Shown here: positions 1,842 through 43,691 of the stretch, piece after piece
How the letters are laid out: each line of letters begins with the position of its first letter
Position numbering within the stretch: position 1 is the stretch's first letter
Assembly (NCBI GenBank): GCA_937949725.1
Contig: CALECT010000048.1
Span: 6,626-70,625, forward strand
Direction of reading: 5' to 3'
Length of the DNA stretch: 64,000 nucleotides
Origin: an uncultured Pseudanabaenaceae cyanobacterium
GTDB taxonomy: Bacteria; Cyanobacteriota; Cyanobacteriia; PCC-9006; JAAUQQ01
Translations under genes and position numbers: made by a program
Notes under the pieces: generated by a model
What the model was told of the DNA's origin: nothing
What the model saw: the letters and a program-made list of their open reading frames with translations, nothing else
Databases searched by the model: none

Positions 1842-4457
1842 GTGGTCAAGCTGTGTGGTTTTAGAGAATCTTGCTCGCCTGTATGCGGTAAGCATACGAT
1901 TTATAATTCGCTGCGTGTAATGAAGAAAGATAGTAGGCCAATGCATTCTGATTTGATTGATGCAACTAGAGACGAAGTACTTCGGCTTTTAGGTAAGCAA
2001 GATGAGTTGCTTACTGATCTGTTAAAAGTGCCTGACTTAATTAGAGAAGATTCTCATGTTCAGGAGCATGGGACAACACGTAGAACTATTGATAACTGGC
2101 AGTCAATTCTCAGTAATGAAGCAAAGAAGGTTGGTCAATTAGAAATGGTTCTGACTGTCTTAGGAACAATGAAGGCGGGAAAATCCACAACAATCAATGC
2201 AATTGTGGGATATGAGGTTCTTCCAAACCGAAATTATCCGATGACGACTCTACCTACTCTTATCCGACACAAGGAAGGACAAAAAGAGCCGATTCTTCAT
2301 TTCCCGAAGCGCGTTCCAATCGAGGAAATGGTCGATCTCGTGAGAGAACGAGTCATAGCTTTAAAGAGAGAGGGGCAGCTTGATAGTGTCGGTTTATATG
2401 CTCAGGAAGATGGGCAAGAGCTTATAGATAAAATTCTGACATTTGAATTTGGGAACTTTAAGGAAACTTATATAGGTCAGGAAGAAATATTTCTCTTCTT
2501 GAAGTCTCTAAATGATCTGATGAGGTTGTCTCAGGATAAAAACATTGATGTGAATCCGCCCCTCGATGAGTACAAAAGCATAATAGATTTTCCATCCATT
2601 GAAGTTGAGTTTTTCCATCTTGCGCAATCAGCTAAGCTAACAAAAGGAAGCTTGGCTCTTTTAGACACTCCCGGTCCTAATGAGGAATTATTAGGACACA
2701 AACTCAGGAAAGTACTTACAGCACAATTAGAAAGAGCATCAGCAATTCTGGCTATTCTTGACTATACACAATTAGGTGGGGAAGCAGAAGGAGAAGTTAG
2801 ACGAGAAATTTCTCGCCAGGCCAATTCTCTTGAGGATCGCTCATTTTTTATAGTTAATAAATTCGATCAAAAAAACAAAAGAGGAATGAAAGCTGATGAA
2901 GTTAAGCGACGTGTTGCAGATGTTGTAATGGGAGGAAAAGTTTCTAAGGAGAGAGTTTATCCTGTCTCAGCACTATATGGCTATTTGTCCAACCGCGCAT
3001 TACGAGAATTAGCTACTCATAAAGGCTTACCAGAGGATGAAAATGATGGCTGGGTTGCTGACTTTGGGCAATTAGCAATGGGTGCATCCTGGGACCCTGA
3101 AGATATTTCTCTGGATGAAGTTAAAGTTGCAGCAGAAAGAGTTTGGAAATCTAGTCGCTTTGATTTACCCATTACAGAAGTCATCGTAAAAGCGGCAAAT
3201 ACTGCTGCTCTAGCTAGTATGCAGTCTGCTGCTGCTAAAATGATTGAAAATGGAAATCGTCTAGAAAATTTCTTAGAAATTCAGCGAGGTGGGTTAACCA
3301 AAACAGTTAGTGAGCTGCGTCACCTAATTGAGGGCTTAGCAAAGGATATCGCAGAAGTAGAGAAAGCCGAAGGTCAAGCTGAAAATGAATTGAATGGATT
3401 AATAGATAATTCATTGGAAATAGTTCAACTCCAGTACCAGACAACGAAAGAGAAACTAAGGCTTGCATTGGAAGGATACTTTCAGGAGGGAAAAAAACTC
3501 GAAGCTGATCAGCTGTTAGAAAGGACCAAAACAATAAAGGAAAAATATAATTTAAAGCTCAACCAAATGAGTACGCAAAGAAATCGAAGGTTCTCTGATC
3601 CATTCGCAAATTTTCATTTTTTTGGTGCAGAAGGAAAAGATGATAGAGAAGTTCAGCACCTTGAAGAGATGCTAGACTACCAGGCAAAAGAATCACTTGA
3701 TTTTGACCCCAAAAACCCTAAAATAAATTTTGAAACAGAACATGTTGCTAAATTTTTCTTAAGGCAGATAAATGAAAAAATAAGTTCCATTTTCAGTGAA
3801 TCGTCTCAAGAATTTGAATTGGCCCTTAAGGATTTATCTAAAGGGCTCGAAGAGACGATTCCTCAAATAATTGTAGAGGGAGTGGGGGAGATCTTAAAAA
3901 ATGCGCAAGAACGACTGAAAGACGAAGGCTTTTCTATTTCATTCGATGTTCCTGAGCCACGGTTTGAATCAGGAGAAATTGAAATCACAGAGCTTTTATT
4001 ATCTAGTGTAGAAGATTCTACTAGGACTACGGCAATAAGACGAAGAAGACAGAAAAGTGGTTGGCTTAATACTGCTAAGCGTTGGTTTGGTGATAAATTT
4101 GATGCTTACGATTGGGGGTACGAGGACTATGTCGATCATCAGACAGAGAGAATTTATGTAGTGGACATGACAAAAATCCAAGAAAGAGTATTGGATGGGC
4201 TAGATGACAGTGCAGAAAAGCTGAGTGACAGCAGTAAGCTTTTCTTTGACACAGTACTCAGACCATTAGTGGATAAATATTTTGAGGAGTTAACCAACTA
4301 TTTGGAAGATTTTAGGAGCAATTTGAGCGATGGAATAGATAAGCATAAACTTGATGAGCAAGCTCAGGAGATGTTGATGCAGAGTATCCTAGCTTTAAAG
4401 GAACGCACTGAGTTGCATACACAAGATGTGCTTGCGGTAAAAAACAACTTGACTTGA
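1842..4457 (+). CDS. bacterial dynamin-like GTPase (BDLP / Dynamin_N family)
   Basis: 871-aa ORF with a GTG start at 1842; the ATG at 1920 (MKKDSRPMH) is a plausible true start. G1 P-loop GTMKAGKS at 2163-2186, G3 DTPG at 2664-2675, G4 NKFD at 2856-2867. The GTPase domain is followed by about 500 aa of helical/coiled-coil-like sequence, as in dynamin-like proteins. Confidence 0.85.
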   Translation: MVKLCGFRESCSPVCGKHTIYNSLRVMKKDSRPMHSDLIDATRDEVLRLLGKQDELLTDLLKVPDLIREDSHVQEHGTTRRTIDNWQSILSNEAKKVGQLEMVLTVLGTMKAGKSTTINAIVGYEVLPNRNYPMTTLPTLIRHKEGQKEPILHFPKRVPIEEMVDLVRERVIALKREGQLDSVGLYAQEDGQELIDKILTFEFGNFKETYIGQEEIFLFLKSLNDLMRLSQDKNIDVNPPLDEYKSIIDFPSIEVEFFHLAQSAKLTKGSLALLDTPGPNEELLGHKLRKVLTAQLERASAILAILDYTQLGGEAEGEVRREISRQANSLEDRSFFIVNKFDQKNKRGMKADEVKRRVADVVMGGKVSKERVYPVSALYGYLSNRALRELATHKGLPEDENDGWVADFGQLAMGASWDPEDISLDEVKVAAERVWKSSRFDLPITEVIVKAANTAALASMQSAAAKMIENGNRLENFLEIQRGGLTKTVSELRHLIEGLAKDIAEVEKAEGQAENELNGLIDNSLEIVQLQYQTTKEKLRLALEGYFQEGKKLEADQLLERTKTIKEKYNLKLNQMSTQRNRRFSDPFANFHFFGAEGKDDREVQHLEEMLDYQAKESLDFDPKNPKINFETEHVAKFFLRQINEKISSIFSESSQEFELALKDLSKGLEETIPQIIVEGVGEILKNAQERLKDEGFSISFDVPEPRFESGEIEITELLLSSVEDSTRTTAIRRRRQKSGWLNTAKRWFGDKFDAYDWGYEDYVDHQTERIYVVDMTKIQERVLDGLDDSAEKLSDSSKLFFDTVLRPLVDKYFEELTNYLEDFRSNLSDGIDKHKLDEQAQEMLMQSILALKERTELHTQDVLAVKNNLT

Positions 4458-4461
4458 TGGA

Positions 4462-5397
4462 ATGACAAAAAAAGAAAGTCTCAGCAACAGCAATTCTCGG
4501 CTGTCAATCCTTACTTTGCAGAATATGCACCCCCAGATTAGGGAAAAGTGTATTTTTGACTATATAAATGGGCTTGAAGTATTGGAAGACCATTTGAGAG
4601 TTAGAAGTAAGAGCAATGAGCAGTTCTTCGGTAGAGTTTGGGAGTCCATAACTGGTCAAGCAATATCTCGCCAGCAACTGGTAGACCAAAATATTACAAC
4701 TTCACTGAACAGTGTTGCGATATGGCTGCAATCGCTTCAGCTTGAAAAGGCTGAAAGTGATTTGGCTATTTCTCATTTAGCAGATAAATTGTTGGAGACT
4801 CGTACAGCACTAGTGAATCAGAGAGGAGAACATAAAGCGCTTGCTGATAGATTGCATAATTTCTCATTGTATGTTTCTTCTCAATTGTCAGATTTAAAGA
4901 TATGCCTTTCTAATGTGGATGCTGCAAGACTAGCTAGTTCTCATTTAGAACAAGTGTTCGACAAATGGGAAGCAGGTCGCCTAGAGAAATATCCTCCACT
5001 CATTCGATTGTTTTTAACAATAGATGAATTACATTGGGGAAACTTTGGTACTTTCTTTCGTTTGTCTCAGAAAGAGGACGAGAAAGTACGCTTAAAACAT
5101 CAGTTAGTTGATAAATCTATTGTTCAAATGAAGAAAGATTTAGGGAAAGATCTTTCTAAACTTATGCTCTCGCAAGATTGGTTGTCTCCTATCCACAAGT
5201 TGTCGCCAGACTCTAAAGAAGCTGTACTTTATTTGAGTGATTGGGCTAGTCCTTCAAATGAACCAATTATTTCTGCAATGAGGTATGCAGCTTTGCCTGA
5301 ACAATATTTTCCTCATGATATGGGAGATTTTCCTTATGTATTGTCTGGAAGGCAAGTTATCAATCATATGATTTATGAAAACAACAATAGGAAATAG
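4462..5397 (+). CDS. hypothetical protein; possible RdcB/YjcZ-like partner of the dynamin-like GTPase
   Basis: 311-aa ORF starting 4 nt after the dynamin stop. I recognise no catalytic motif. The family suggestion rests only on size and on its position directly 3' of a dynamin-like gene, as in the E. coli yjdA(rdcA)-yjcZ(rdcB) pair. Confidence 0.6.
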   Translation: MTKKESLSNSNSRLSILTLQNMHPQIREKCIFDYINGLEVLEDHLRVRSKSNEQFFGRVWESITGQAISRQQLVDQNITTSLNSVAIWLQSLQLEKAESDLAISHLADKLLETRTALVNQRGEHKALADRLHNFSLYVSSQLSDLKICLSNVDAARLASSHLEQVFDKWEAGRLEKYPPLIRLFLTIDELHWGNFGTFFRLSQKEDEKVRLKHQLVDKSIVQMKKDLGKDLSKLMLSQDWLSPIHKLSPDSKEAVLYLSDWASPSNEPIISAMRYAALPEQYFPHDMGDFPYVLSGRQVINHMIYENNNRK

Positions 5398-5416
5398 TCT
5401 TGCTATTGTCTAAATT

Positions 5417-6388
5417 ATGCCATCAAACCTTTGTCGAGTTGGTCTGGTTTTGTCTGGAGGTGGTTCTGTAGGCGCTTATCATATCGGAATCCTTAAGTAC
5501 CTCGTGGAGCATTCTATTAGAGTTGATGCTCTTGCTGGAGCAAGCATTGGTGCCTTGAATGGCTCTATCATAGCTAGCTCGTCAAGTCTCGATAGTGCGA
5601 CAAAAAAGCTAGAAGAAATTTGGAGTTTGCTCGCGAATAACCATCCTCTTGAAGATCGTGACTCTTCAAATATTTATAAGATTTACAAGGTACTTAAAGA
5701 ACTCCTGTTATCTCCTAACAATATAGGTTTCTTTGATGATCATATGCTTCGCCAAATCCTCAAAGACTATTTGAATGTCTACAATTTGAATTCTGGAATT
5801 CCTTTTTATGTTTCTGCATATCAAAGTGAAGGTAGCTTGTTAGATATCTCCAAAGCCCTTCTTGGAAAGATGAATTTGAATAATACTCTTCCTTCCAATT
5901 TTTTTCACGTTCAATCGATGCATGGTACTGAGCAAATTAATGCTATTTTGGCCTCGGCATCTATTCCTCTAATTTTCAGAGCAAAAAAAATCGGGGGTAA
6001 TTATTATGCTGATGGAGGAATTGGTGGTATGAAGAGTGCACAGGGTAATACACCAATTACACCATTGATTAAACATGAGAGATGTTCTCATATTATTGTC
6101 AATCATTTAGGTGATGGTAGTTTTTGGAATAGACATGATTTCCCAGAAACAACAATCTTAGAAATACGACCGGGCAGGAATATTACACGAGATGGACTTG
6201 CCAGAGATCTTTTAGGTTTTAAGCCTATTAATATTAATTCATGGATTGAGCAGGGGTACGAAGATGCTTATAGATGCTTTAGTAATTTAGGGTCTGCATT
6301 ATCAAGTATAAAGATTGCAGATGCTGCTAGAGAAAAAAGAAACTTGTCAATAGATAGACTAAATGATGATGATTTTAAAGTATTTTGA
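5417..6388 (+). CDS. patatin-like phospholipase
   Basis: 323 aa. Oxyanion-hole motif GLVLSGGGSVGAYHIG, nucleophile elbow GASIG (5537-5551) and catalytic Asp in YYADGGIGG (D at 6011-6013). Starts 19 nt after the preceding stop. Confidence 0.9.
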   Translation: MPSNLCRVGLVLSGGGSVGAYHIGILKYLVEHSIRVDALAGASIGALNGSIIASSSSLDSATKKLEEIWSLLANNHPLEDRDSSNIYKIYKVLKELLLSPNNIGFFDDHMLRQILKDYLNVYNLNSGIPFYVSAYQSEGSLLDISKALLGKMNLNNTLPSNFFHVQSMHGTEQINAILASASIPLIFRAKKIGGNYYADGGIGGMKSAQGNTPITPLIKHERCSHIIVNHLGDGSFWNRHDFPETTILEIRPGRNITRDGLARDLLGFKPININSWIEQGYEDAYRCFSNLGSALSSIKIADAAREKRNLSIDRLNDDDFKVF

Positions 6389-8941: not shown

Positions 8942-11533
8942 TTAGCTTTGCCCCATCAGCACAAAGGCCCCCCAATCCGCTGGGTCAGGATACTCCTCCA
9001 TGGTGGACAGCATTGCTTGGCGTAATGCCTGCCCCTTGTCCGGCTCGTCTTGCAAATTGACGTAAAACTCCTCCATCAGTTCTGCCGTGGAAAAGTCCGC
9101 CACGGGCCAGAGGGAAGACAAGATGCTGGGTACACCTGCCGCAAAGAAAGCGCGGGAGAGACCCACTACACCGTCGCCTGTAATCGCGCCGCGAGCGGTG
9201 TCACAGGCACTGAGAACTGCCAGGTCTGCCCGTAGTTTCAAGTCCATGATTTCTTCGGCGGTGAGGAATCCATCGCCGCCTTGGGCCGTTAGGGCTAGGG
9301 AGCTATTGAGACCATGTTGCTCGTCGAAGAGACCGTGGGTGGCAAAGTGAAGGATGGGAGCGGTCAGCATTTCCTGGCTAACCTTGCCTTCGTGGGCGAC
9401 TTCCCCAATTAACGGTTGAGTCTGCAACAGTGGAGAAATCTGCTGAGCTTCAAACTCTGACCCAGGTAAAGGTGCAAGTTGTTGCGGTGTTCTGCCCGGC
9501 ACTGCGGATAGGTGAGGCATGATGGGATTGCCCACGACCAGGGCTGCGACAGCTTCTGTTGCGGCTTGGCGAGTGGACTCAGCCACTTGCTTCTTCTTTT
9601 CGGTCAAGGCCAGGGCTTGAATGGAGGTGATGATGCGGGGGGTGTGCTGTTCAACCAAGAACTTTCGCTGCTGATCCTGGAGGGCTGGGAAAGGCACCAT
9701 CAGCAATGCCTTGTGGGGCACAATCACTACGGTTTCTTCGGGGTTGGCAGGTAGGGCATCTGCGATGGGCTCGATCAAGACCCGGTGGAGTTCTTGGAGT
9801 GCCCTATAGTTCTTGGTTTCTGCCTGCTTTGGTTCTGGCAGACTGCTTGCGATTAGTTGAGCTTGGGCTGCATTGAAGGCAAAGCCTCCACGAGTGTTGC
9901 CCCGGCTACTAATTTGTCCTCGCTGGGTAGCAACCCACTGGGCTAAGGAGCCATCGAGATTATCTAGGTCTTGCTGGTGAAAGGTGATTGTTCCGCTGGG
10001 GCGAACAACCCAGGTTAGTAAGCGCTCGGGAGCTTCAACATTGGGGGCATTGGAGGCCTCAATGTAGTTTTGCGTCAAAGGTTGGATGACTGCATATTGA
10101 AGCAGTGTCGCGTTTTCTGCGCGGGCGATCGCTCGAATCTTTTCTAGATTTGGAGGAGCTGAAATAGCTGCATGGTGATGATGACCGTTCACGACTGCAT
10201 GGTCGCTGTGGTTCTTGACGAGGCGCTGGGCCAATAGCTCATTGAAGGCACGGGCGCGACTTTGCTCCGAAACTACAAGGGCTTCTTCAACGCGGTCCTG
10301 GGCAATCAGGGTTTCTTGGAGGCGATCGTAGAGGGTCACATGGGCATCGAAGAGGGTGACTTTTTGTTGGTCCCACAACCCATGGCGAAGGTTCTCGAAG
10401 GATGCGATCGCCCCTCTAAATTCTGTCTCTGCTTGCTCCAGTTTGTTCTGCAACAAGTACACCTCGCCTCGCTGGCGCTGAAGCATGATGTTGGTCATGG
10501 CATTGCCCAGTGGTCTGGCTGGGTCATCCACGTTGGCATAGTCTGCTAGGGCCAGGTCAAACTCGCCTGCTTGAACGTGGGTTTGCCCCTTGAGCAGGTG
10601 CATGCGGGCTAGGACAGAGTTGGGCTGACCTTGGGCGATCGCTAGGGTCAAGATGCGCTGGGCCTTATCTAGCTGCCCTTGTTTGAGGGCGATCTGGCCT
10701 AGCTGTAGGCGTGCGGTCATTTGTCCCCGCACATCTTTAATGGCGAGGGATTGGTTGAGAGCCTGGGTATAGGCCATCTCTGAATCTTCCCAGCGGCTCA
10801 TTTCCTGGTAAATCCAGCCCAGGCGTTGCAATATACGACTTTGGCCAATGCTGTCTTTAATGCTGCGGTAGCCCACCAAAGCCTGGCGATAGTCCTTCTC
10901 CGCCGCTTGCATTTGCCGCAGGTCCCAGTTGACATCGGCACGAAGCTGGAGAGCACGGGCGCGATCTACGATGTCGCCATCTAGGGCCAGAGCAGACTCC
11001 GCAGTGGCCAGGGCATCGGCATAGCGGCCAAGGCTGCGATGGAGACTTCCCAGCAGTACTTCATATTGCAAGATGTCATTGGCTGTTTTAAGGCCTGGCC
11101 GCGCTTGGGCTAGTAGGGCTTCAGTCTCTGGAAATTTGCCTGTCATTAGGCGCAGTTGAGCTTGGCCGAGAGCATGCTGGGCTGCTAGGGAAGGAGACAG
11201 TGGTCCTAAGTCTTTGGCTTGATTGAGCAACGCTTGAGCAGGCCCCCCTTGACCCAGCCGACATTCCACTGTGGAGGCATCAATTAGAATGGCTTGCTGC
11301 AACGCAATATCCCTGGCTGCTTCTGCTTGCTGGAGCTCTTGCTGGAGGGCAATTCTTGCAGCGTTAAAGTTGCCTTGGCGCAGTAATGCTTGACCTGTTG
11401 TAACCGTTGCGGCTGCTTCTTGGGCCTCTTGAGCTGTGGCTGCAACCGGCGCAAAAGTGGTGAAGAGGGGGGCTGTGAAGCCCAGAAGCGCGATGCCAAA
11501 AAGATTTGCGGTCCAAAAACGGGAGAGCTGCAT
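8942..11533 (-). CDS. TPR-repeat + CHAT-domain (caspase-fold) protein with an N-terminal signal peptide
   Basis: The likely start is ATG 11533 (MQLSRFWTANLFGIALLGFTAPLFTTFAPVAATAQE); the track ORF extends to 11596. TPR-like repeats fill the central part. The C-terminal CHAT dyad is ILHFATHG ... LAVLSACDTARG. Confidence 0.85.
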   Translation of the reverse strand: MQLSRFWTANLFGIALLGFTAPLFTTFAPVAATAQEAQEAAATVTTGQALLRQGNFNAARIALQQELQQAEAARDIALQQAILIDASTVECRLGQGGPAQALLNQAKDLGPLSPSLAAQHALGQAQLRLMTGKFPETEALLAQARPGLKTANDILQYEVLLGSLHRSLGRYADALATAESALALDGDIVDRARALQLRADVNWDLRQMQAAEKDYRQALVGYRSIKDSIGQSRILQRLGWIYQEMSRWEDSEMAYTQALNQSLAIKDVRGQMTARLQLGQIALKQGQLDKAQRILTLAIAQGQPNSVLARMHLLKGQTHVQAGEFDLALADYANVDDPARPLGNAMTNIMLQRQRGEVYLLQNKLEQAETEFRGAIASFENLRHGLWDQQKVTLFDAHVTLYDRLQETLIAQDRVEEALVVSEQSRARAFNELLAQRLVKNHSDHAVVNGHHHHAAISAPPNLEKIRAIARAENATLLQYAVIQPLTQNYIEASNAPNVEAPERLLTWVVRPSGTITFHQQDLDNLDGSLAQWVATQRGQISSRGNTRGGFAFNAAQAQLIASSLPEPKQAETKNYRALQELHRVLIEPIADALPANPEETVVIVPHKALLMVPFPALQDQQRKFLVEQHTPRIITSIQALALTEKKKQVAESTRQAATEAVAALVVGNPIMPHLSAVPGRTPQQLAPLPGSEFEAQQISPLLQTQPLIGEVAHEGKVSQEMLTAPILHFATHGLFDEQHGLNSSLALTAQGGDGFLTAEEIMDLKLRADLAVLSACDTARGAITGDGVVGLSRAFFAAGVPSILSSLWPVADFSTAELMEEFYVNLQDEPDKGQALRQAMLSTMEEYPDPADWGAFVLMGQS

Positions 11534-11955
11534 AGCCAACTGTGTTGATCTCGGTGAGAGGTGGCGTTGATCGAGTGATGAAAATGCACAGAACAACGGA
11601 TGGGAGAGGGGGCTTGGCTAGGCGCTTGCTAGCGTTTCGCGGATTTCCTCTGACCAGTCCCAGACTCAAACGCCGGACAGGGTCCAGTTGGTAGATATAT
11701 GGTGTAACCCAAACGAATCATTCCCAGGGGGATGATGACGTTTAACAAAATTCAGGGAGTTCTCAGGTTGATGATTTAATTGCGGCTAGAAGCTAATTGG
11801 GATGGGCGTTTGAGGTGGTACTTTCCTGTTGCTAAAAGCTGGAAGCGTTGTGCGCCTGCTGCTGAAGGCAGCGATTTGCAGACCCTCTGGGCATCGATTA
11901 GCATGAAGGGGATTAAGCATTTCAGCTTGACGCCTTGAGCTGACAGGGAAAGCGC

Positions 11956-12741
11956 ATGATCGCCACCCAGCCGAACCCCCAGTCGCCGCAGCCTATTGCG
12001 CCTACGCAGATGCTGCTATCGGGTAATTGCTTGGGAGACTTTTCAAGGCCTAGTCCAGGATTTGGCATCCTAGCCGGGACAGCAGGGCTGATTCAAAGTC
12101 CGCAAAGAGAGTCTGCAATGCCTATTCCGTTGTTTGGCATTCTACTGGCTGATAACGATAGAGTAATGGTTCTAGGTTGTCTCATTTGAGAATGAATCAG
12201 CCCTGGCCGGGACAGCGGCTGACTTATAACGATGGCGCATTGGAGATTTGGATGCTTTTACCTCCCCATGATTCGGTATAAGAAGTTTTTGGCGCGTCTG
12301 GTGGAGATTTTGACGGAGGAGTTGGATTTAGAGATTTGTAGCCTGGGCTCTTGCACTTGGAATCGTTGAGATTTGGCTAAGGGGTTTGAGGCGGATGAAT
12401 GTTATTACATTCAAAATGAGCCTGTGATTTGGAGGCGGATGGAGATTGATTTAGAGGTGGACCCGCCGCCGGATTTGGCGGTTGAGGTGGATATTACGAG
12501 TTTGTCGATTCCTCGTCTGCCGATTTATGCGGCTTTGGGATTGCCTGAGGTGTGGCGGTTTGATGGGGAGCGGTTGGAGTTTTTGAGCTTGGTGGCTGGG
12601 GAGTATGGTGCGGTAGAGCAATCTTTGGTGTTACCTGGGGTGAGGCCCGATGATTTGATTATGTTGCTAGGGCAAGTCTCGGAGATGGGGGAGACGAGCT
12701 GGGCCAAATATGTGCGGCGTTGGATGCGAGAGAAGTTTTAG
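11956..12741 (+). pseudogene. Uma2-family (DUF820) endonuclease pseudogene, disrupted by a MITE, frameshifts and nonsense codons
   Basis: Uma2-like segments lie in different frames: ...MLLSG / VIAWETFQGLVQDLAS / PGQRLTYNDGALEIWM / KKFLARLVEILTEELDLEICSLGS / DLAKGFEADECYY...PPDLAVEVDITS...GLPEVWRFDG. There are in-frame stops at TAG 12071-12073 and TGA 12367-12369, plus the insertion at 12084-12204. Track ORF 12373-12741 is only the C-terminal piece. Confidence 0.75.
12084..12204. mobile_element. miniature inverted-repeat element (MITE, about 121 bp)
   Basis: Perfect 12-bp terminal inverted repeats agggctgattca (12084-12095) and tgaatcagccct (12193-12204). They are flanked by an 11-bp direct duplication gccgggacagc (12073-12083 and 12206-12216). 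Excising the element restores the Uma2 reading frame ...LAS(W)PGQRLTYNDG. It has no coding capacity. Confidence 0.8.
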
Positions 12742-12936
12742 TAGAGCTAATTATTTTTCAATACTCACATAAATTGGATAAGCTATAATGTCATCTCTCA
12801 CAGACTTTTTTGCTCATTCTGACAGGCTATTTCGTTGTAAAAAATTAGTTCTCTACCACATGAGAAGTTCGTAATATTTCAGTCAATTTGAAGGACTTTG
12901 TTCGGTTATCTTTCCATAATCAGCAATACTTATATT

Positions 12937-14850
12937 CTAAAGGATATGAGATAGGCAAGTACTTACATATTCTGCGTAACTTAAGTATTCACTGCGATCT
13001 ACAGGCCAAGCAAGAGTATCTGCATGAGAGATAGGATTTTTATTACGCCTATCAAATAAATTTCCTACTTGGACACATACCTCATGAGGAATAGTCTTAC
13101 TGTTTAAGAATTTCACTGCATCTTTAGCATTGTATTTTTTCTGCTTTTTAGATGGTGATTCTAATACATAGCAAATCGCATGAACCTCGTTGAGCAAGTG
13201 ATTTAAAGCTACTGAATAATGTCCTCGTCTTTCAGCTTTAATTCGCAATCGAATTTGCTCTAGAATATTAGGGTTATTAGAGATTCGAGCTATTTGCTTT
13301 TCCGTTAAATCAAAATATCCTGGCTTTGTTCTTGATGGATTTTTTCGAGAATATATGTCTATGATTGGCTTCATATGAATATTTTTCTTTAAAATTCTTA
13401 TGAGTGGCTTTGAATCGAACTCTTCTTGGCATAAATAGCTCAAAACCAAATGAGCATCACGAGAAGAAATTGATGTCTTTCTCAATAAGAAATCGGAGAA
13501 ATTTTTCGATGATTCCGAACTTTTCATCAGTATTATCAGAATTTCTCTTGGCTGTGCGATAACCAAGTCGAAATTGAATTCATCGAAGATGCTAGCAATT
13601 TTGTCTTTATTCTTAGGCTGTTGAAGTAACGCAGAAACTGATTTGTCATAAACCTGCTTTAATACTTCGTCGTCTAAATCACTCCTATCATCAAATGTCG
13701 GATCTAATGATCGTCTCTTTAATCTTTCAAGCTGTTTGAATATACGATCTAGCTGTCCTTGTGGTGTTTGAGAGTCTTCATCATCTGGTATCTCATAGCC
13801 TGGAGATGTCCGCTTTAAACTTTTTAGCAATTTTTGCTCATCATATTTCTGACAAAGCCAATAGAGCTGTGTCTTTGTATTGAGCCTTAATCCAAATTCG
13901 GAATAAAGTACATCTGCCAAAGTATTTGCTATTCGAGCGACATATACTTCTTGCTCAGCTGGCTTTAAGGAATTAGAGAACTCAATTGTTATATAAATAT
14001 CATCCATATAACGATCAATAAAATACGTAGAAATATCTTTAGAGTTTTTCCTCAGCTCCTCATCAAAGCGTAGATCTGCAAAAACCAAATACAGATATCC
14101 AATGTAGCTACATGTAATATCATTGTCAAACTGAGGTATGCCAGTTTCTTTCTTCGTAAAGTATTCAAATAAATTTAGAATTTGCTCTTGGGTAATTGCA
14201 TCAAATCTCATCTCCTTTTTAATACTAGGTTTCACATAGTGATCTAATAATTCCACTAGGTTACGGACTTGAATTTCCTCGTAGTAATTTTGGATGTCAA
14301 GATGTATGACGACTTTTTTGTTTTTTTCATCTTGAACATGCTTTCTGACCTGACGACGAAAGTCTTGATAGTGTTTTTTGTACCAAACACTATCGTATTT
14401 CAATACAACCTTATTTTGAGAGGAGTCAAATTTTAGACTTCCTCCATAATAGGAATTTATTTGACTATGGGGAAAATAGTGCTCTTGCAAAAAATCCTGA
14501 GAGAGCTTCACTATATACAGTCCTACGGAATAGCATAAAACTCTTGCAGGATAGGTAAAGAAGCAATATTTTCGAAGGCCTAAATTTGCTTTTGGAATGG
14601 GATATGAATGTATGGAGAACTCATTCTGAAGCCCATAAAATAGATTGTTTTCTACTTTCGATGTGAAATATTTTTGTGTGGCAACTTTACGCTTATATGT
14701 TTGAGTTAAATTCTCATAGTAGAACATACTCAACTTATTAAAGTGTCTGTTCCCTTGCTTCATTGAGAGCTGAAAGCCTAACAAACTGACGGCATTCTCC
14801 CAAAAGACAAAATCTAAAAAATAACCAACTTTTGCCAGACTTTGAGACAT
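12937..14850 (-). CDS. defence-type reverse transcriptase with a C-terminal HEPN-like motif (AbiA-like)
   Basis: RT motifs: VVIHLDIQNYYEEI (14272-14304 region), GIPQFDNDITCSYIGYLYLVFAD, and the catalytic YMDD in RYMDDIYI (13999-14010). There is a roughly 340-aa C-terminal extension containing DRRNKNPISH, i.e. an Rx6H HEPN-type motif at 13024-13050. The likely start is ATG 14850 (MSQSLAKV); the track ORF begins at TTG 14898. It is the only gene in AT-rich island 2. Confidence 0.8.
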   Translation of the reverse strand: MSQSLAKVGYFLDFVFWENAVSLLGFQLSMKQGNRHFNKLSMFYYENLTQTYKRKVATQKYFTSKVENNLFYGLQNEFSIHSYPIPKANLGLRKYCFFTYPARVLCYSVGLYIVKLSQDFLQEHYFPHSQINSYYGGSLKFDSSQNKVVLKYDSVWYKKHYQDFRRQVRKHVQDEKNKKVVIHLDIQNYYEEIQVRNLVELLDHYVKPSIKKEMRFDAITQEQILNLFEYFTKKETGIPQFDNDITCSYIGYLYLVFADLRFDEELRKNSKDISTYFIDRYMDDIYITIEFSNSLKPAEQEVYVARIANTLADVLYSEFGLRLNTKTQLYWLCQKYDEQKLLKSLKRTSPGYEIPDDEDSQTPQGQLDRIFKQLERLKRRSLDPTFDDRSDLDDEVLKQVYDKSVSALLQQPKNKDKIASIFDEFNFDLVIAQPREILIILMKSSESSKNFSDFLLRKTSISSRDAHLVLSYLCQEEFDSKPLIRILKKNIHMKPIIDIYSRKNPSRTKPGYFDLTEKQIARISNNPNILEQIRLRIKAERRGHYSVALNHLLNEVHAICYVLESPSKKQKKYNAKDAVKFLNSKTIPHEVCVQVGNLFDRRNKNPISHADTLAWPVDRSEYLSYAEYVSTCLSHIL

Positions 14851-15019
14851 AAAAATTGCGTGAAAGCCAAAGGCGTAGAAAATGAAAACGCCCAACAAAA
14901 TATAGGGTTGTCTGTCTCGTTAAATATAGCTTACGAGCAACATATTTTACTACAGTTGAGATTCCAGACTTACTACTGCCACGCGATAACAAAATACTTG
15001 TTGGTTAGATTCGATAGCA

Positions 15020-15697
15020 TTACGAAACCCTTAATTGCTGCATTAACCAATTCGCTGCTGCTGTATTTGTCTCAGTCTCTAGCCGCTCGATCGCCTGCTC
15101 CACCAGCCTCAGCGGCAACCCAGCTAAAACCCGCGACGCCTCAATCACCTCATAGCTGCCCCGCTCCGTCAAACCAAACCCAAACAACCGCCGCCCTTTA
15201 ACATCAATCACCCAATACTCAGAAATGCCCAAACTGGCATAGAGCTGCTTCTGCTCATCCAAATCCAGGCTCAACGTTGTATCTCCAATTTCCCCCACCA
15301 AATCCGGCAGGCGATGGCGAGTTGTACTAATCCGCCGAGGCTCACCTGGCTGCCACCGAGGAATATCATCACCGCGATACAGCACCAGATCTGGCGCACA
15401 GGCTTGAACGTCTGGCTTCTCAATTAGGCAACGGCCATAGGATTGCAACACCTCCTCTGGATGCAGCATCGCCCAGAGGAAAAAAATAGCCGTCATAAAA
15501 TCACTGAAAGCAGCGTGATTCGGACCTTCTTTCCCCATATCAGCCCAGAGCCAGCCATCATTAAACGAAATTTTTTGGCAATCTAAATCTGTGTCATCTC
15601 GCAACGCCACATAGTCCTGCCAAGTCGCGCCATGGCGTTGCAAATCCAGCGCTTGAGCAGGTGGCGTATTTCGAGAGCGTTCCAACGAGATTGTCAT
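15020..15697 (-). CDS. Uma2-family (DUF820) endonuclease, apparently intact
   Basis: Contains ...ATWQDYVALRD..., LPDLVGEIGDTTLSLDLDEQKQLYASLGISEYWVIDV. The likely start is ATG 15697 (MTISLERS); the track ORF extends to 15787. Confidence 0.75.
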   Translation of the reverse strand: MTISLERSRNTPPAQALDLQRHGATWQDYVALRDDTDLDCQKISFNDGWLWADMGKEGPNHAAFSDFMTAIFFLWAMLHPEEVLQSYGRCLIEKPDVQACAPDLVLYRGDDIPRWQPGEPRRISTTRHRLPDLVGEIGDTTLSLDLDEQKQLYASLGISEYWVIDVKGRRLFGFGLTERGSYEVIEASRVLAGLPLRLVEQAIERLETETNTAAANWLMQQLRVS

Positions 15698-15790
15698 CGT
15701 AGTAGCCACAGGGCTAGGGAGACCATTGCCTAGAGCCATCATATCGCAATAAAAAACCGGACCTCCCAAAGGAAGCCCGGCCATCAATCA

Positions 15791-34058: not shown

Positions 34059-34574
34059 GATTATCACCGCATGATCGAGGCGGAGATTTTTGGCCCTGAG
34101 GAACGAATTGAATTAATTTCAGGGTAGTTAGTTCCTATGGCAGCTAAAGGGGCTCCTCACCGGGCGGCGGCGACTAGAACCCGTCGGGTTTTAGAAGCGC
34201 GGTTGGGCGATCGCGTCTTAGTCCGTGTCCAAGACCCCGTGACGCTGGGTGATTTGTCGGAGCCGGAGCCGGAGCCGGATGTCTCGGTTGTCCGCCGAGG
34301 GTCACCCCAAGGCTGAGGATATGTATCTGCTGGTTGAAATCGCGAATAGTTCGCTGAAGTACGATCGCGAAGCCAAGTCTTTAGCCTACGAAAAGGCTGG
34401 GGTGCTGGAATATTGGGTGCTGGATATTCAGAATCGCAGGCTGCATGTGTATCGTTCGCCCCAAGAAAAGGGCTATAGCGTGGAGTGGAGACACTAGAGG
34501 CGTCGGAGCAGGCGGCGCTGTTGGCGTTTCCGGATTGTGTGGTTGGGGTAGCAGAATTGATGGGCCCAGAGTGA
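34059..34574 (+). pseudogene. Uma2-family (DUF820) endonuclease pseudogene
   Basis: DYHRMIEAEIFGPEERIELISG*LVPMAAKGAPH has an in-frame TAG at 34125-34127, and there is a TGA at 34314-34316. The core LLVEIANSSLKYDREAKSLAYEKAGVLEYWVLDIQNRRLHVY lies in a second frame (track ORF 34249-34497). The tail LEASEQAALLAFPDCVVGVAELM lies in a third frame. Confidence 0.75.
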
Positions 34575-34676
34575 GCGGCTCCTGCCGCCAGTATGAAGAA
34601 GCCAAGTCTTAGGCCGGAGCCTCAAGCAAGCCGTTTCAAGGCAGAGCCTAAAAATCAGCAGAGCCAAGAAGAAAAG

Positions 34677-35468
34677 TTACTCATCACTCAAAGCAGCCTC
34701 CCCATAAATGACATATGAGTGAGAGTAATACTTGTAAGCAGAGTAAATGAGTCCGCTCAACAACCAGTAGTTGATTCCACCAGAAACTGCCCCGCCTATA
34801 ATTGGAATCCAACCTACACCTATCTTGGCAGCCACTTTGGTTGTCACCTTTTGAACACCAGTACCAACCACTTTCGAGGCAATCTTGCCAGCCACTTTTG
34901 ACCCACTTTTGAGAGCTGTTTTCTTTAAGGCTACGCAAGTTACGTTACTAGCCACTTGACCAGCTATCTTGCCAGCGAACTTTGGTATACCCTTGGTACC
35001 AAGTTTCAGCACTACTTTGGGGGAGGACTTGACGCCCACCTTTCCAGAAATTGCTCCTCCGGGAGCCAAACTCAATTTCCTATAAGTTTTCCCGCTGTCT
35101 TCATCATAAACTTTTCCTTCAGGTGGGGAGTTTGTCGCGGAAGCTACGTCAGCCCAGATGGCAAGTATATGGTTCATATCAGAGAGAAAGTCAACCTCTC
35201 GATCTAAGATGTAGCCAACTCCCAAGCATGCCTGGGGAGCTACTTGTCTACACCAAAGCAAGTCAGCACCAACAGCAGCGACAGACCACCAGCCCCCTGT
35301 TAACCCTGCGGCGACACCACTAACAGAGACTGCAAGCAAATGTTCTCTTTCCCATTCTGGATAGCTGTATCGCCTAGCCTTCGCTTCCAGCTCCCGCCTC
35401 TCAGCAGCAAACATTCCTGAGCCCCAATCCCTAAACATTGAGGCCAACATCTCTTGTAATTCGTCCAT
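34677..35468 (-). CDS. EcsC-like membrane-associated protein
   Basis: 263 aa. It has a Gly-rich hydrophobic segment (VSGVAAGLTGGWWSVAAVGADLLW), repeated K-x-AGKIA-type basic stretches, and a C-terminal IGVGWIPIIGGAVSGGINYW. The family call is tentative. Confidence 0.5.
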   Translation of the reverse strand: MDELQEMLASMFRDWGSGMFAAERRELEAKARRYSYPEWEREHLLAVSVSGVAAGLTGGWWSVAAVGADLLWCRQVAPQACLGVGYILDREVDFLSDMNHILAIWADVASATNSPPEGKVYDEDSGKTYRKLSLAPGGAISGKVGVKSSPKVVLKLGTKGIPKFAGKIAGQVASNVTCVALKKTALKSGSKVAGKIASKVVGTGVQKVTTKVAAKIGVGWIPIIGGAVSGGINYWLLSGLIYSAYKYYSHSYVIYGEAALSDE

Positions 35469-36028
35469 GTTTAATTTTCAGAAGAAATGGATCAATAAGA
35501 AGTTGTCTTTAACTCAAAATATCTATCTTCAGCTAGCTGACAGAATCGCATTCTTTACCTTTGAAGTCGTCACCTAATGAACCCAAAACTTTGATTTTGA
35601 GAGAAAAGACACCCACATATTAAATGGGAGTCGGCTGGGTACTGGTCTGCTTCGTGGGGAGGATTTGCAATATCCGATGCTTAGTAAGGATTTCAGGGAC
35701 TTCTGCTTTAAAAGCTGCTAACCCTTGGCTGGACAAGGCTTTCATTCAAGCATCCCCTACTTTCCAGACCAGTGCAGTCGGCTAGAACAGCAGCCTTCCG
35801 ATTAGTCCTTACCGGTAAAGATATTTGTACAATAGATATCGATCATGAGTGAACTCCCTATCTTGATGCTAATAAGTAGAGAAGTGGAATGGATACAAAA
35901 GTCACAAAAATAAAAAAACAGACCTCTTATCAGAGCTCGAGAAATTCCATTAACTTAGACAAAGATTCAATCTTGTCCAGGGCTAATTCACTTTCAAAAG
36001 ACATAAACTGCAACCCTCATCCGATATC

Positions 36029-37903
36029 ATGTTTGCATTGAGAAAAATAATTGTTCTTGTTACAGTTTTGCTTTTCTTGTTACCTCATGGCTTGGCTTAC
36101 GCAGACGCTGGCTTGATGTCAAGTACGCCAGATAAGTGTAAATTAGTTAGCCCTTCTCAAATGAGGCCCGAGCTAACTCAAGCTATCCAGGATTTCTTTG
36201 AAGCTGAGAATTCCTTTAACTTTGACGCAAAAGTTGGCCGAGAGTGGAAGCTTCTCAAAATTGACAAAATTCTTAATGACTCTGTATCAGCGGCTGTTAC
36301 AGAGATCGGAGTTGATACGAAGTGGCAAGATAAATTCATGAGTAGCTGGAACTCTGGAAAAGCAGAGCAGCTGGCAGCCCAAGTGATATCTCAAACCTTT
36401 GATAATCCTGACCTAAAGCGTTCATTGCAGCGTCTCGCAAACAATGTTGGTAGGCAGGTGGCTGATGAGATAGAGCTGGCAACAGTGCAATCCTCGTCTT
36501 ACGGAATGCAATGCTTGCAAACATTTATTGGAGATCAATACTCAACCACATTCCTGGATCTCTTTAATCAAAAAGCAGAAGAGTCTGCACAGCAGGGATC
36601 AGTTGATTTCTCTGCATCCTTTACTCCGGAGAGTAAAAAATACTTGTTATCTCGCAATGTAGCTGCTGTTGGAATTGGCACCTTCATTATTGGGAGAATC
36701 ACTAGAGAGGTAACCAAGAAATTTGCTGAACGCGTAATAGGTCAAGTAGGCAAAAGGTTACTGGGCAGGCTGGGAGCAGGGGCTATTCCTTTCGTTGGCG
36801 AAATCGTAGGTGTTGGTTTACTAGCAGCAGACGTTGCCCAGAGCTTTTCGGGGTCCTTTGAAGAAATTGAGACTCAGCTAAAGTCTCCTAATGTCAAAAA
36901 TTCTCTGCGTCAATCTATTTCAGATGTTTTACAAGATGAAATTGGTGGACAATCCTCTCAAATTGCATCAGAGATTTCAAACGAACTCTACGCAGAATGG
37001 TTGGATTTTCAGAAGGATTATCGCGAAACCCTTAATCTAGCCAGTGAGATACCTGAGTTCAAGCAGCTCCTAACAGAAGAAGGAGATATGCCCAAGGTGA
37101 CATCTTTGGTCGGTATTGCCCTAAATAATATGGGGCGCCGTAAGCTGATTGATGCTATCCAGGATGGAAGCTTTGCTCAAGCTCTGAACCTACCCATCAT
37201 TGCTCGACCAATCATTCAATACACTGGCAGTATTCAAGAGGCTGTATCTTGGTCAAAGATATCTGGCAATTTTCTTGAACGTGTTGTAGATCTAGAGATC
37301 TACAAACATTTATCTTTGGAAGGTTTAGAACATCGCTTACTGGTAGACCTCCTAGCTTTAGAAGATGCTGATGCCATCTCCAAGATGTCATTGTTGCAAA
37401 ACTCGGAAATTCAACAACTCCTAGCCATATCTAGTCCAAACTTAATTCCTCTAGCAAAGGTCGTATCTGCGCAGGATCTCCAAAGGCTTTCAGGCTACAT
37501 AGAACAGTTAGATAAGTCAGAAACTAATGATTTGATCAGATTTTTACTCGATGACAGTAAGAGCACGATTAAAAATACAGATGTAATGACACATATTGTT
37601 CAGAGTGGCAACATAAGTCGCGCAACGAAGTTTTGGCAAAGGCAGACAAGTCCTTTAAGCCTTGCATTCAGCCTCTGGCCTATTGCCATGGGGGAAATTT
37701 CATGGAGATTAGCATGGGTTAAATACGGTAGTACTTTTCTTGGTGAAGCCTTTGTGGCCATTGCCGTTGCGCTGTCATTAACCTTAGGGCTTGGCTTTAA
37801 GCTTTATGGAAGCATCTTAGATGTGAAGTACAAACAAGCGAAGCTCGCTGGTGTTCCGCAAGATACCGAAGTACAAGATTCTGACGAAAACAATGTTGAT
37901 TAG
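36029..37903 (+). CDS. large signal-peptide / C-terminal TM protein of unknown function (paralog A, AT-rich copy)
   Basis: 624 aa with signal peptide [25 protein letters not shown] and C-terminal TM helices. It aligns along its whole length with the product of 54958-56841. Shared blocks include [11 protein letters not shown](S/A)SYGM(Q/S)CLQTFI, SFSGSF(E/S)EIE(T/S)QL(K/Q)SP, W(L)[10 protein letters not shown] and VGIAL(N/D)NMGRR. Confidence 0.8.
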
Positions 37904-38213
37904 CCTTGATCACGCCCCAGATTCATCAATGGAAATTGGTGAACTGCTTACTGTAGTCACGATTCGAGCAGCAAACGTTGTTAAAGATATTCGTGAAAAT
38001 ATTAAGAATCTGACAGGAGGTCGCCTGACTCATTATGAACAGTTAATTAGTCAATCCGTTGATAATGCCTTGAGTGAATTAGAGCAAAAAGCACTGACAA
38101 AAGGTTACGACGGTGTGATAGGCGTCAAAATAGCCAATCCCTCTGTTGTCGAAGGAGGTGTGGAAATCATTGTTTACGGCAATGGCTTTAGGAAAAGAGT
38201 ATCTGAGCAATGA
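37893..38213 (+). CDS. YbjQ-family (UPF0145/DUF74) protein (paralog A)
   Basis: [10 protein letters not shown]...[35 protein letters not shown]...[29 protein letters not shown]. The ATG at 37893 overlaps the upstream stop (37901-37903) by 11 nt, suggesting translational coupling. The track ORF start at 37851 lies inside the upstream gene. Confidence 0.85.
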
Positions 38214-38350
38214 GATGTCCTCCAATCCCAATTACCCTCAAGCTTGCAGCATTTGATTCGCAGAGGCCTGTCCTTACTCACAGGTCGCTTCCAGAAAACC
38301 GCTGTACCATTAAGAAGAAGCACTACACCGCTAGTTTTAGCTAGACAACC

Positions 38351-38590
38351 ATGGAAGCACTCGCCCTAACCAACGAAAATGTCGAAACCGTCCTCGACGA
38401 ACTCCGCCCTTACCTCATGGCCGACGGTGGCAACGTCGAGCTAGTCGAAATCGACGGCCCCATCGTTAAAGTCCGCCTCCAAGGCGCTTGCGGCTCTTGC
38501 CCCAGCTCTGCCATGACCCTGAAGATGGGCATTGAGCGTAAGCTGCGCCAAATGATTCCTGAAATTGCTGAGATTGAGCAGGTTCTCTAG
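38351..38590 (+). CDS. NifU C-terminal-domain (Nfu-type) iron-sulfur cluster assembly protein
   Basis: 79 aa with [45 protein letters not shown], including the CxxC motif. Confidence 0.9.
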
Positions 38591-38619
38591 ACAGAGCTTC
38601 ACTGAAAGTCATTTGAAAA

Positions 38620-38656
38620 GCGTGGGTTGGCAAGGGTTGCCGACCCACGCTTTTTG
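38620..38656 (+). terminator. Rho-independent terminator after the nfu-type gene
   Basis: Stem gcgtgggt (38620-38627) pairs with acccacgc (38643-38650), followed by ttttt (38651-38655). Confidence 0.75.
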
Positions 38657-38766
38657 GTATTCGAATAAGCTTTTCCCATTGAAGCGATTTCTTCCCCAAG
38701 CCGCAGCCAGAGCGGGTATGCTGGTTTACTGGAGTTTCCAATCCATCGGCCCCATCCGAGATCTGA

Positions 38767-40053
<1,287 letters not shown>

Positions 40054-41430: not shown

Positions 41431-42177
41431 ATGGCTGCGTCAAAGCAATCTTCTTCAAACAAGGTGTCAGCGATCGCCAAGAAAGGCGGTAAAACGTCTG
41501 CAAAGCCTCGCAAAGGGCGGGTCACCCAAAAACAACTGCGCGCTTTAGCCATCCTGGAAGAACTCAAGCGACTCTATCCTGAAGCACCTTGCTCCTTGGA
41601 TTTTGAGAACCCGTTACAGCTAATGATTGCCACGATGCTGGCGGCTCAATGTACGGATGAGCGAGTTAACAAGGTGACGCCAGCTCTGTTTGAGCGCTAT
41701 CCCGATGTGGAGGCTTTTGCGGGGGCAGAGTTGGAGGAGCTGGAGAAATATGTGAAGTCCACAGGCTTCTATCGAAATAAGGCCAAGAACATTCGTCTCA
41801 ACTGCCAGCGCTTAATCGAGGTCTATGGCGGGGAGGTGCCCCAGACCATGGAGGATTTGGTTTCCCTGGCCGGTGTTGCTCGCAAAACGGCCAATGTGGT
41901 GCTGGCCCATGGCTTTGGAATTAACGGTGGTGTGACGGTGGATACCCATGTAAAGCGGATTACAAATCTGCTGAAGCTGACGAAGTCGGATAATCCGGTG
42001 CAGATTGAGCGAGACTTGATGAAGCTGTTGCCCCAGCCCGATTGGGAGAATTGGTCGATTCGGTTGGTGTATCACGGGCGGGCGGTTTGTGTGGCGCGGC
42101 GACCGGACTGCGATCGCTGCACGCTAATTGAGCATTGCCCCTCAGGCCCCAAGATTTTGGCCGGCAAAAAGCCCTAG
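41431..42177 (+). CDS. nth: endonuclease III
   Basis: HhH motif LVSLAGVARKTANVVL, catalytic-region DTHV, and Fe-S cluster CVARRPDCDRCTLIEHC. ATG 41431 (MAASKQ) is preferred over the track start at 41410. Confidence 0.9.
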   Translation: MAASKQSSSNKVSAIAKKGGKTSAKPRKGRVTQKQLRALAILEELKRLYPEAPCSLDFENPLQLMIATMLAAQCTDERVNKVTPALFERYPDVEAFAGAELEELEKYVKSTGFYRNKAKNIRLNCQRLIEVYGGEVPQTMEDLVSLAGVARKTANVVLAHGFGINGGVTVDTHVKRITNLLKLTKSDNPVQIERDLMKLLPQPDWENWSIRLVYHGRAVCVARRPDCDRCTLIEHCPSGPKILAGKKP

Positions 42178-42243
42178 GAGCTGTGAAGTGAAACCTAGGG
42201 CTTTTGGAGTTTAGGTTGGAATAGAAGGAGCTGTTATATCGAC

Positions 42244-42456
42244 CTAACTAGCTGTGGCGAGGCTAGAGTGATGAACGAGCTGTTTTGCAGAGACTAGAGC
42301 ATTAGAAACATTAGGCTGGATGGGTTCAGCAATTTCAAATTTGCAGCTTAGGGAAACGAGGGGCATTTCTTGCCAACAGCTGCGGCAGAACCAATGAATT
42401 TCGCCGCTACGAATGCGACGTAGTAATTGATCTTCACAGCAAGGACATTGGCCCAT
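42244..42456 (-). CDS. small zinc-ribbon protein (hypothetical)
   Basis: MGQCPCCEDQLLRRIRSGEIHWFCRSCWQEMP carries two CxxC pairs. Start ATG 42456 is chosen; the track ORF extends to 42570. Confidence 0.4.
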   Translation of the reverse strand: MGQCPCCEDQLLRRIRSGEIHWFCRSCWQEMPLVSLSCKFEIAEPIQPNVSNALVSAKQLVHHSSLATAS

Positions 42457-43533: not shown

Positions 43534-43691
43534 GGGCGCTGCTGCCTGGAGAGACGGGGAGCGATGGATATGAGGCTTATACTAGCTCGATCCTAGCGAG
43601 ATTCCTGCTGGCTTGTCTAGGCTGAAATCTTCTGCAAGAAAGGCTGGTTGGGAGAGTTGCGCATTTCTTGCAGGAGGTGGGCCAATTGGCC

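Follow-up and report, generated by a model that had tools for sequence, protein, structure and literature searches.

The AbiA protein of Lactococcus lactis is built of three domains and dimerises via its HEPN domain (Gapinska et al., PMC11077055). It carries covalently bound single-stranded DNA (ssDNA) and makes A/C-rich DNA without a template or a primer, with Tyr298 or Tyr303 of a flexible loop as the priming residue; of the two, Tyr298 is conserved among five Bacillota AbiA sequences (PMC11077055). Polymerase activity is lost when the HEPN domain is deleted, and defence in Escherichia coli needs the polymerase and priming residues, whereas the HEPN R/H residues are dispensable (PMC11077055). 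Mutations by which phages escape lie in genes for single-strand annealing and recombination (PMC13064643). Here, we describe an abiA-like gene at 12937..14850 (minus strand) of a 64,000-nt stretch of DNA from an uncultured Pseudanabaenaceae cyanobacterium (contig CALECT010000048.1), referred to as the window. Our explanation, to which as a whole we give a probability of about 0.8, is that this gene encodes a one-gene AbiA-large system that synthesizes ssDNA in a protein-primed and untemplated manner, and that it was acquired horizontally as a minimal cassette at a strain-variable spot between two Uma2-family genes.

Several other defence polymerases resemble AbiA in part. AbiK and Abi-P2 (PDB 7R06-7R08) likewise consist of thumbless reverse transcriptase (RT)-like palm and fingers followed by a helical domain, and are stand-alone, protein-primed and untemplated; however, they are without a HEPN domain and assemble as trimers or hexamers, compared with the dimer of AbiA, and the AbiK priming Tyr sits in the N-terminal fingers (PMC11077055). 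The two-gene variant AbiA-small + SLATT (Mestre et al. 2022) belongs to the same RT lineage as the window protein. It has no fused HEPN domain and is partnered by a SLATT membrane protein (PMC9226505), whereas the window protein has a fused HEPN domain and no conserved neighbour. Further, retrons and the defence-associated reverse transcriptases (DRTs) DRT2 and DRT9 are also devoted to defence, and DRT9 is likewise protein-primed; these systems need a conserved structured non-coding RNA (ncRNA) beside the RT gene, and none is detectable at the window locus.

The reading frame of the window gene (12937..14898, minus strand) is open over 653 codons from a TTG, and the ATG at 14850 gives a product of 637 aa plus stop, with a length and an N-terminus in agreement with about 200 relatives. 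The product is of the AbiA-large type, with RT-like, helical and HEPN domains in one protein. It is identical to a public-collection protein (P0001), and the same 637-aa protein is encoded on three metagenome contigs with 99.98-100% nt identity to the window. The frame is full length, and each catalytic and motif residue is intact. A first-pass annotation, made from the letters of the sequence, had proposed an AbiA-like RT that stands alone and carries a HEPN-type motif at its C-terminus. The RT motifs that it quoted were all found where it had placed them, with IHLDIQNYYEEI holding D185 at 14298-14296, GIPQ...FADL present and YMDD at 14010-13999, and its Rx6H near the C-terminus is R602-x6-H609 at 13047-13024, within RRNKNPISH at 13050-13024.

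Family membership is directly supported by curated profiles. TIGR04499 of NCBIfam ('AbiA family abortive infection protein'; curated cutoff 250 bits) matches the window protein at 380.3 bits (E-value (E) 1.9e-113) over profile positions 1-615 of 615. As a positive control, an authentic L. lactis AbiA (628 aa) was taken from plasmid pUCCL629C; its residues agree with the published numbering (Y27, Y130, Y134, D240, Y298, Y303, Y363, R581 and H588), and it scored 705.6 bits with the same model. With PADLOC, which the first-pass annotation had named as a check, two AbiA models scored 286 and 89 bits, whereas the other UG/DRT, Cas-associated and generic RT models scored 29 bits or less, the best of them being RT_UG21 at 28.9 bits. 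Pfam returned only a sub-threshold RVT_1 match (E 0.003) at residues 182-320 of the 653-aa translation, which are residues 166-304 in the 637-aa numbering.

A model of the three-dimensional structure places the protein in the same family. The AlphaFold2 model, built on 32 relatives, has a predicted local distance difference test (pLDDT) score of 87.2 and a predicted template modelling (pTM) score of 0.89. Its N-terminal domain is mixed alpha/beta, residues 348-359 form a disordered loop, and the rest of the chain is all helical. When the PDB was searched with Foldseek, the top matches were the four chains of 8OZ7, which is L. lactis AbiA (E 1.2e-17 to 6.7e-17, template modelling (TM) score 0.65-0.73, about 670 columns). 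These matches cover all three domains and lie ten orders of magnitude ahead of other RTs. Abi-P2, DRT9, DRT6, DRT4, AbiK, group II intron RTs and retron RTs followed at E 2e-7 or worse and a query TM score (TMq) of 0.38 or less; among them, AbiK and Abi-P2 were the next-best matches (E 2e-7 to 2e-5, whole-chain TM about 0.3), and the DRT9 structure 9vma was a distant match at E 4e-7.

The alignment of a divergent family profile with L. lactis AbiA by hhalign had a probability of 97.4% (E 1e-11) and ran through 569 collinear columns at 17% identity. It pairs D283/D284 with D240/D241, Y157/Y161 with Y130/Y134, VY401DK with VY363NK, and R602-N603...H609 with R581-N582...H588. Three of the four DNA-stacking Tyr of the lactococcal protein (Y27, Y130, Y134 and Y363) are therefore retained, Y27 being aligned with H36. 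The link to L. lactis AbiA rests on the structural match, this alignment and the TIGR04499 model common to both proteins.

Compared with L. lactis AbiA (plasmid pTR2030 type; 8OZ7; 'AbiA-large' of Mestre et al. 2022), the window protein thus has a similar length (637 versus 628 aa), lies likewise above the TIGR04499 cutoff and has the same domain order of RT-like, helical and HEPN. Both proteins have the catalytic D...Y[VM]DD, the stacking Tyr that correspond to Y130, Y134 and Y363, an acidic flexible priming loop and RNxNP[VI]SH, and both are single-gene systems. They differ in that the lactococcal gene is on a plasmid and the window gene is chromosomal in a cyanobacterium, in Y27 versus H36, in YVDD versus YMDD, and in the loop, where Bacillota AbiA keep Tyr298 and the clade of the window protein keeps Ser349 (K-[KR]-[VT]-S-P) with Tyr optional.

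These observations support the assignment of the window gene to the AbiA family (AbiA-large, UG/Abi class 1) and bear out the AbiA-like RT of the first-pass annotation, with the TIGR04499 and PADLOC AbiA scores, the 8OZ7 match over three domains and the hhalign result in agreement. The broader placement in the defence-associated Abi/UG class is in line with the full-length matches to curated AbiA models, and the defence role itself would follow by analogy with L. lactis AbiA. The suggestion of a diverged subtype fared less well. The clade falls inside TIGR04499, the model by which NCBI names AbiA, and the AbiA label is already attached to many relatives in cyanobacteria, so it is not formally a new subtype and the window gene is an ordinary member of an already annotated family. 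For annotation, this means that the locus is to be described as an AbiA-type single-gene defence system and not as a retroelement, with no hidden ncRNA to be sought.

Residue conservation was counted over 199 full-length relatives with 24-53% identity. The RT-like fingers and palm (about residues 1-330; 13861..14850, minus strand) include motif A with D185 and the YMDD (Y281-D284), and D185, D283 and D284 are invariant in all 199. A purely helical Abi-type domain (about residues 335-505; 13336..13848, minus strand), defined by the secondary structure of the model and by superposition on 8OZ7, stands in place of an RT thumb. The protein is accordingly thumbless, with the whole chain superposing on 8OZ7 at TM 0.67-0.73, and it is VY401DK of this domain that matches the lactococcal VY363NK with its DNA-stacking Tyr.

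Between the RT and helical domains lies a flexible acidic linker loop, LKRTSPGYEIPDDEDSQT (about residues 345-362; 13765..13818, minus strand), which is a candidate protein-priming loop. Its pLDDT is below 50 for residues 348-359, and it aligns with the L. lactis 290-310 loop that bears the priming Tyr298 and Tyr303. The window protein carries both S349 (13804-13806) and Y352 (13795-13797) in this disordered segment. S349 is kept in 191 of the 199 relatives, and most of the other eight look like alignment shifts. A modest new point is thus that the clade conserves S349, and not a Tyr, in the priming loop. Some other protein-primed polymerases start from a serine, among them those that use the phi29 and adenovirus terminal proteins, and S349 bears on whether Tyr is the only residue from which Abi polymerases can be primed.

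The C-terminal helical HEPN-type domain (about residues 515-637; 12940..13308, minus strand) contains RNKNPISH (R602-x6-H609) at 13024-13047, which has the same spacing and nearly the same sequence as the lactococcal RNSNPVSH. R602 and H609 are kept in 192/199 relatives, and all seven R602 exceptions are alignment gaps. When the C-terminal 138 residues were modelled alone (pLDDT 83), the best PDB matches were HEPN proteins, but every E-value was above 1; these non-significant Foldseek matches were led by 2hsb (probability 0.92, TM 0.56-0.61), followed by 1ufb, 1wol, 7ae9, 3o10 and 7bxo. Three findings lead us to conclude that the C-terminal region is an AbiA-type HEPN domain, namely the motif itself, the collinearity of the alignment and the match to 8OZ7 over the full length; the stand-alone fold match is only suggestive. 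The HEPN domain that the first-pass annotation had seen in the C-terminal extension is thus recovered by these three routes but not by the Pfam profile HEPN_AbiA_CTD that it had named. Its description of the motif as an RNase signature holds for the arrangement, which is as in lactococcal AbiA; in the lactococcal protein, however, no RNase activity was detectable and R/H mutants still defend (PMC11077055).

The same evidence bears on a rival explanation within the AbiA family, by which the HEPN domain is an active RNase effector that degrades RNA upon infection and the polymerase is a sensor or regulator. The R-N-x5-H motif is conserved nearly as strictly as the polymerase site and survives between lineages at about 17% identity, which is hard to account for by a purely structural dimerisation role, and HEPN domains with Rx4-6H are usually RNases (PMC3710099). 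However, L. lactis AbiA showed no detectable RNase activity on several substrates, and its R581A, H588A and double mutants still protected E. coli fully from phage, a protection that was lost in polymerase mutants (PMC11077055). The sequence offers nothing to tell an active HEPN from an inactive one, and on balance we regard an RNase effector as unlikely.

A related but distinct proposal joins the two conserved sites. Because one third of the members are without a loop Tyr while S349 is nearly invariant, and because R-N-x5-H equals the polymerase active site in its conservation, the environmental AbiA clade may prime from serine, with S349 as the candidate, and may also retain a catalytically relevant HEPN site. 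We hold this combination as a tentative possibility. If true, the clade would be a mechanistic variant of AbiA, more than a homologue.

Because the catalytic Asp, three of four DNA-contact Tyr, the disordered acidic loop and the HEPN motif are kept, the L. lactis mechanism is the best-supported one for the window protein. By this analogy, the C-terminal HEPN domain probably holds two copies of the protein together as a dimer. The RT-like palm (D185, D283 and D284) probably joins the first deoxynucleotide to a loop hydroxyl, that of Y352 and/or S349, and ssDNA of random sequence is then probably extended free of template and primer, with the stacking Tyr (Y157, Y161 and Y401) and the helical thumb-replacing domain likely guiding it. 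It is this polymerisation, with no part for an accompanying ncRNA, that would stop phage DNA from being replicated or recombined. The polymerase activity, priming residue, dimerisation and anti-cyanophage function of the window protein would all be carried over from the lactococcal case in this manner, and the gene is a sensible candidate for anti-cyanophage testing.

Several observations weigh against this explanation. L. lactis AbiA, the sole AbiA that has been studied biochemically, has just 15-17% identity to the window protein. 8OZ7 was never recovered from PDB-chain sequences, either by phmmer with the whole protein or the isolated HEPN domain as query or by hmmsearch with three clade profiles, and a local unfiltered hmmsearch gave the lactococcal link only 10-36 bits with high compositional bias. 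Given this identity and the HMMER misses of 8OZ7, the transfer of mechanism therefore spans a long evolutionary distance. In the loop, L. lactis Tyr298 is without a fixed counterpart; 131 of the 199 relatives have a loop Tyr and 68 have none, and hhalign sets Y298 and Y303 opposite K346 and G351 in a register that is uncertain by 1-3 residues. Pfam HEPN families, including HEPN_AbiA_CTD, were undetected in the full protein and in 21 isolated C-terminal domains of the clade. In addition, a simple sigma-70 scan, crude and untuned to cyanobacterial promoters, found no promoter-like site upstream of the gene.

The first-pass annotation had argued for a stand-alone gene from the lack of an msr/msd region, Cas gene or intron RNA domain nearby, and this view is supported. 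Rfam had no match at gathering thresholds anywhere in the window, and within 12300-15400 at E up to 10 it returned only chance-level matches (E 0.4 or worse) and no intron family. Similarly, clustering of open reading frames (ORFs) within 3 kb at 43 loci revealed no neighbour common beyond close relatives. Where the flanks were long enough to measure it (25 loci), the low-GC tract always spans 1.9-2.6 kb, which is the gene and little else. These results support a gene with no obligatory partner gene or ncRNA.

The first-pass annotation had also suggested that the flanks could hide a small ncRNA template, in which case the enzyme would be a DRT- or retron-like RT copying an ncRNA from the AT-rich flanks. 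The two flanks (169-183 nt and 195 nt) are indeed non-coding and AT-rich, and several UG/DRT systems, namely DRT2, DRT3 and DRT9, make use of an adjacent ncRNA (PMC12489045, PMC12596737). However, neither the 5' flank (14851-15019) nor the 3' flank (12742-12936) is more stably folded than its dinucleotide shuffles (z-scores 0.07 and 0.65), and neither resembles an Rfam family at E below 0.4. Among 42 related loci from GTDB genomes, flank similarity was found only between close genomes or where the comparison enters the coding region, and the window flanks match none of them, whereas functional DRT ncRNAs are conserved. The narrow low-GC tract leaves almost no space besides the gene, and AbiA chemistry requires no template (PMC11077055). 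A hidden template is thus very improbable. Candidate ncRNA-dependent DRTs (DRT2, DRT3, DRT9 or other UG) were rejected on the RT_UG21 score against the AbiA score of 286 bits and for want of a conserved flank, and a retron on the blank Rfam search, the unstructured flanks and the absence of meaningful inverted repeats around the gene.

A mobile retroelement instead of a defence gene, with the product as a group II intron maturase or a retron RT, would be in keeping with the generic RT likeness of the protein, as seen in the RVT_1 match and in the RT-domain matches that PDB profile searches gave to RTs of retrons and introns. Against it, the group II RT/maturase model TIGR04416 gave 20.5 bits where its curated cutoff is 300, no Rfam intron family was found in the region, and neither intron domain V/VI nor a retron msr/msd was detected by Rfam. 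The window protein has no thumb or X domain, and intron and retron RT structures align with its RT core only (E 1e-6 to 1e-4, TMq 0.25-0.33). The group II intron candidate was consequently rejected, and we consider a retroelement of either kind exceedingly improbable. The findings by which the first-pass annotation would have abandoned its own reading, namely an intron- or retron-type RT or intron RNA around the ORF, did not appear.

The stand-alone AbiA-type gene is located in an AT-rich tract from about 12742 to about 15033 (2.3 kb), with a GC content of 33-37% compared with 50-58% on either side, of which it is the sole ORF of substance. The single-cargo 2.3-kb island of the first-pass annotation is thereby upheld. 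The gene itself has a GC content of 0.34 against 0.55 in its flanks, and the GC content at third codon positions (GC3) is 0.31 against 0.53-0.66 in neighbouring genes; the contrast in GC3 is therefore a difference in codon usage and not merely in amino-acid composition. The octamer HIP1 is highly over-represented in many cyanobacterial genomes. In the window, HIP1 (GCGATCGC) has 49 copies where 1.0 is expected, with zero between 10643 and 16926; further long HIP1-free gaps are at 42118-51585 and 34215-38897. The excess of HIP1 marks the host as a cyanobacterium, and the island is compositionally foreign to its chromosome. Neither a tRNA nor an Rfam family accompanies the gene, and other signatures of mobility (direct or inverted repeats at its flanks, an integrase, a transposase) were looked for and not found.

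The right border of the island is formed by a host gene of the Uma2 family of putative endonucleases (15020..15787, minus strand; Pfam Uma2 3e-23, PADLOC candidate PDC-S03 1e-10, GC3 0.53). The AT-rich 5' flank of abiA, comprising untranslated leader and promoter region (14851..15033, minus strand), is delimited by GC content and by a break in homology with the related strain L061. This strain has 88% nt identity to the window across rpe and Uma2, and the similarity ends at 15033, four codons before the Uma2 stop. Past the junction, L061 has unrelated DNA (L061:2719-2990) that matches nothing else in the window, and its contig stops 272 bp on. The 3' end of Uma2 is therefore an insertion spot that varies between strains. 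The right junction was placed at about 15033 by this comparison, while the left junction could not be defined. On the left, the AT-rich 3' flank (12742..12936, minus strand) shows no detectable ncRNA and, by a simple scan, no terminator-like site, and it borders on a second Uma2-family sequence (12177..12741, plus strand). The ORF at 12373-12741 (122 aa) is the C-terminal half of this Uma2 (Pfam Uma2 70-151 of 172), and N-terminal pieces lie in other frames (ORFs 12177-12281 and 12232-12369, Uma2-like by eye), so that it looks like a frameshifted remnant. The surroundings of the locus consist of Uma2, pentapeptide-repeat and CHAT/TPR genes.

Relatives of the window protein are widespread. A word-indexed search found 151 of them, many named 'AbiA family abortive infection protein', with so named members in Sphaerospermopsis, Anabaena, Nostoc, Pannus, Synechocystis PCC 7509, Symploca and others. 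When 1.84 billion cluster representatives were searched exhaustively with a profile, 392 clusters (counted at 50% identity) were matched at E <=1e-3 and 227 at E <=1e-30. Genome matches come from Cyanobacteriota, Chloroflexota, Nitrospirota, Poribacteria, Bacteroidota, some Bacillota, Leptospirales and others. In contrast, tblastn against phage and plasmid collections found no relative of the clade, only weak RT-level matches. A rough neighbour-joining tree groups the window protein with copies from Caldilineales and Nitrospirota metagenome-assembled genomes (50-52% identity in the tree; 50-53% for the nearest relatives) and not with the main cyanobacterial clades (43-44%), and the contigs of these genomes have no HIP1. 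A horizontal origin is favoured because of the GC and GC3 gap, the HIP1-free region, the nearest relatives outside cyanobacteria and the strain divergence at 15033, and it forms one part of the joint explanation given at the outset.

The cassette habit extends through the family. In 41 of 42 related loci, the GC content of abiA is below that of its flanks, typically by 10-30 points, as in Herpetosiphon (0.23 versus 0.53) and Pannus (0.30 versus 0.56). An AT-rich cassette with one gene is thus typical of the family, with the window locus no exception, and AbiA-large genes travel across phylum boundaries as minimal cassettes of about 2 kb that are AT-rich whatever the host.

A recent transfer raises a further alternative, that the gene is an intact but silent passenger which is not expressed or not active in its host. 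Its foreign composition is unameliorated, the simple scan gave it no promoter-like site, and several relatives are visibly decaying (L017, L018, L044, L048 and L053). On the other hand, the ORF is full length with all catalytic and motif residues in place, the identical protein occurs in three metagenome assemblies of the same organism, and the sigma-70 scan is not adapted to cyanobacterial promoters. We judge a silent passenger to be improbable, and an active AbiA-large system remains the preferred explanation.

Among the relatives, the matched frames of L017, L018, L044 and L048 contain 1, 3, 18 and 30 stops, respectively, and these internal stops or frameshifts are signs of decay; the Herpetosiphon copy L053 ends at 283 aa. 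Neighbourhoods also vary between groups. In five Poribacteria loci (L027, L028, L030, L034 and L045), AbiA lies directly downstream of a protein of about 960 aa and a small protein, which by eye are type I restriction R subunit-like and metallopeptidase-like, while in the Calothrix group (L017, L018 and L032) a protein of about 600 aa, DUF262/GmrSD-like by eye, is upstream of AbiA. Both neighbourhoods suggest a possible defence-island context.

Elsewhere in the window, a second AT-rich island (1842-6388, plus strand; 37-40% GC, GC3 0.27-0.33) has three co-directional genes, which encode a dynamin-family GTPase (871 aa), a YjcZ-like protein (311 aa) and a patatin-like phospholipase (323 aa). 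PADLOC gave only a weak 'phospholipase effector' match here, and the island is possibly a conflict or defence module of an uncharacterised kind. A lower-GC tract (42-45% GC, about 35-38 kb) contains a 624-aa ORF (36029-37903, plus strand) with no Pfam or PADLOC match, adjoined by a 263-aa ORF (34677-35468, minus strand) that matches the PADLOC candidate family PDC-S30. Further, two large CHAT-protease proteins are encoded in the window, a TPR-CHAT protein of 884 aa (8942-11596, minus strand) and an LRR-Roc-COR-CHAT protein of 1528 aa (45417-50003, plus strand).

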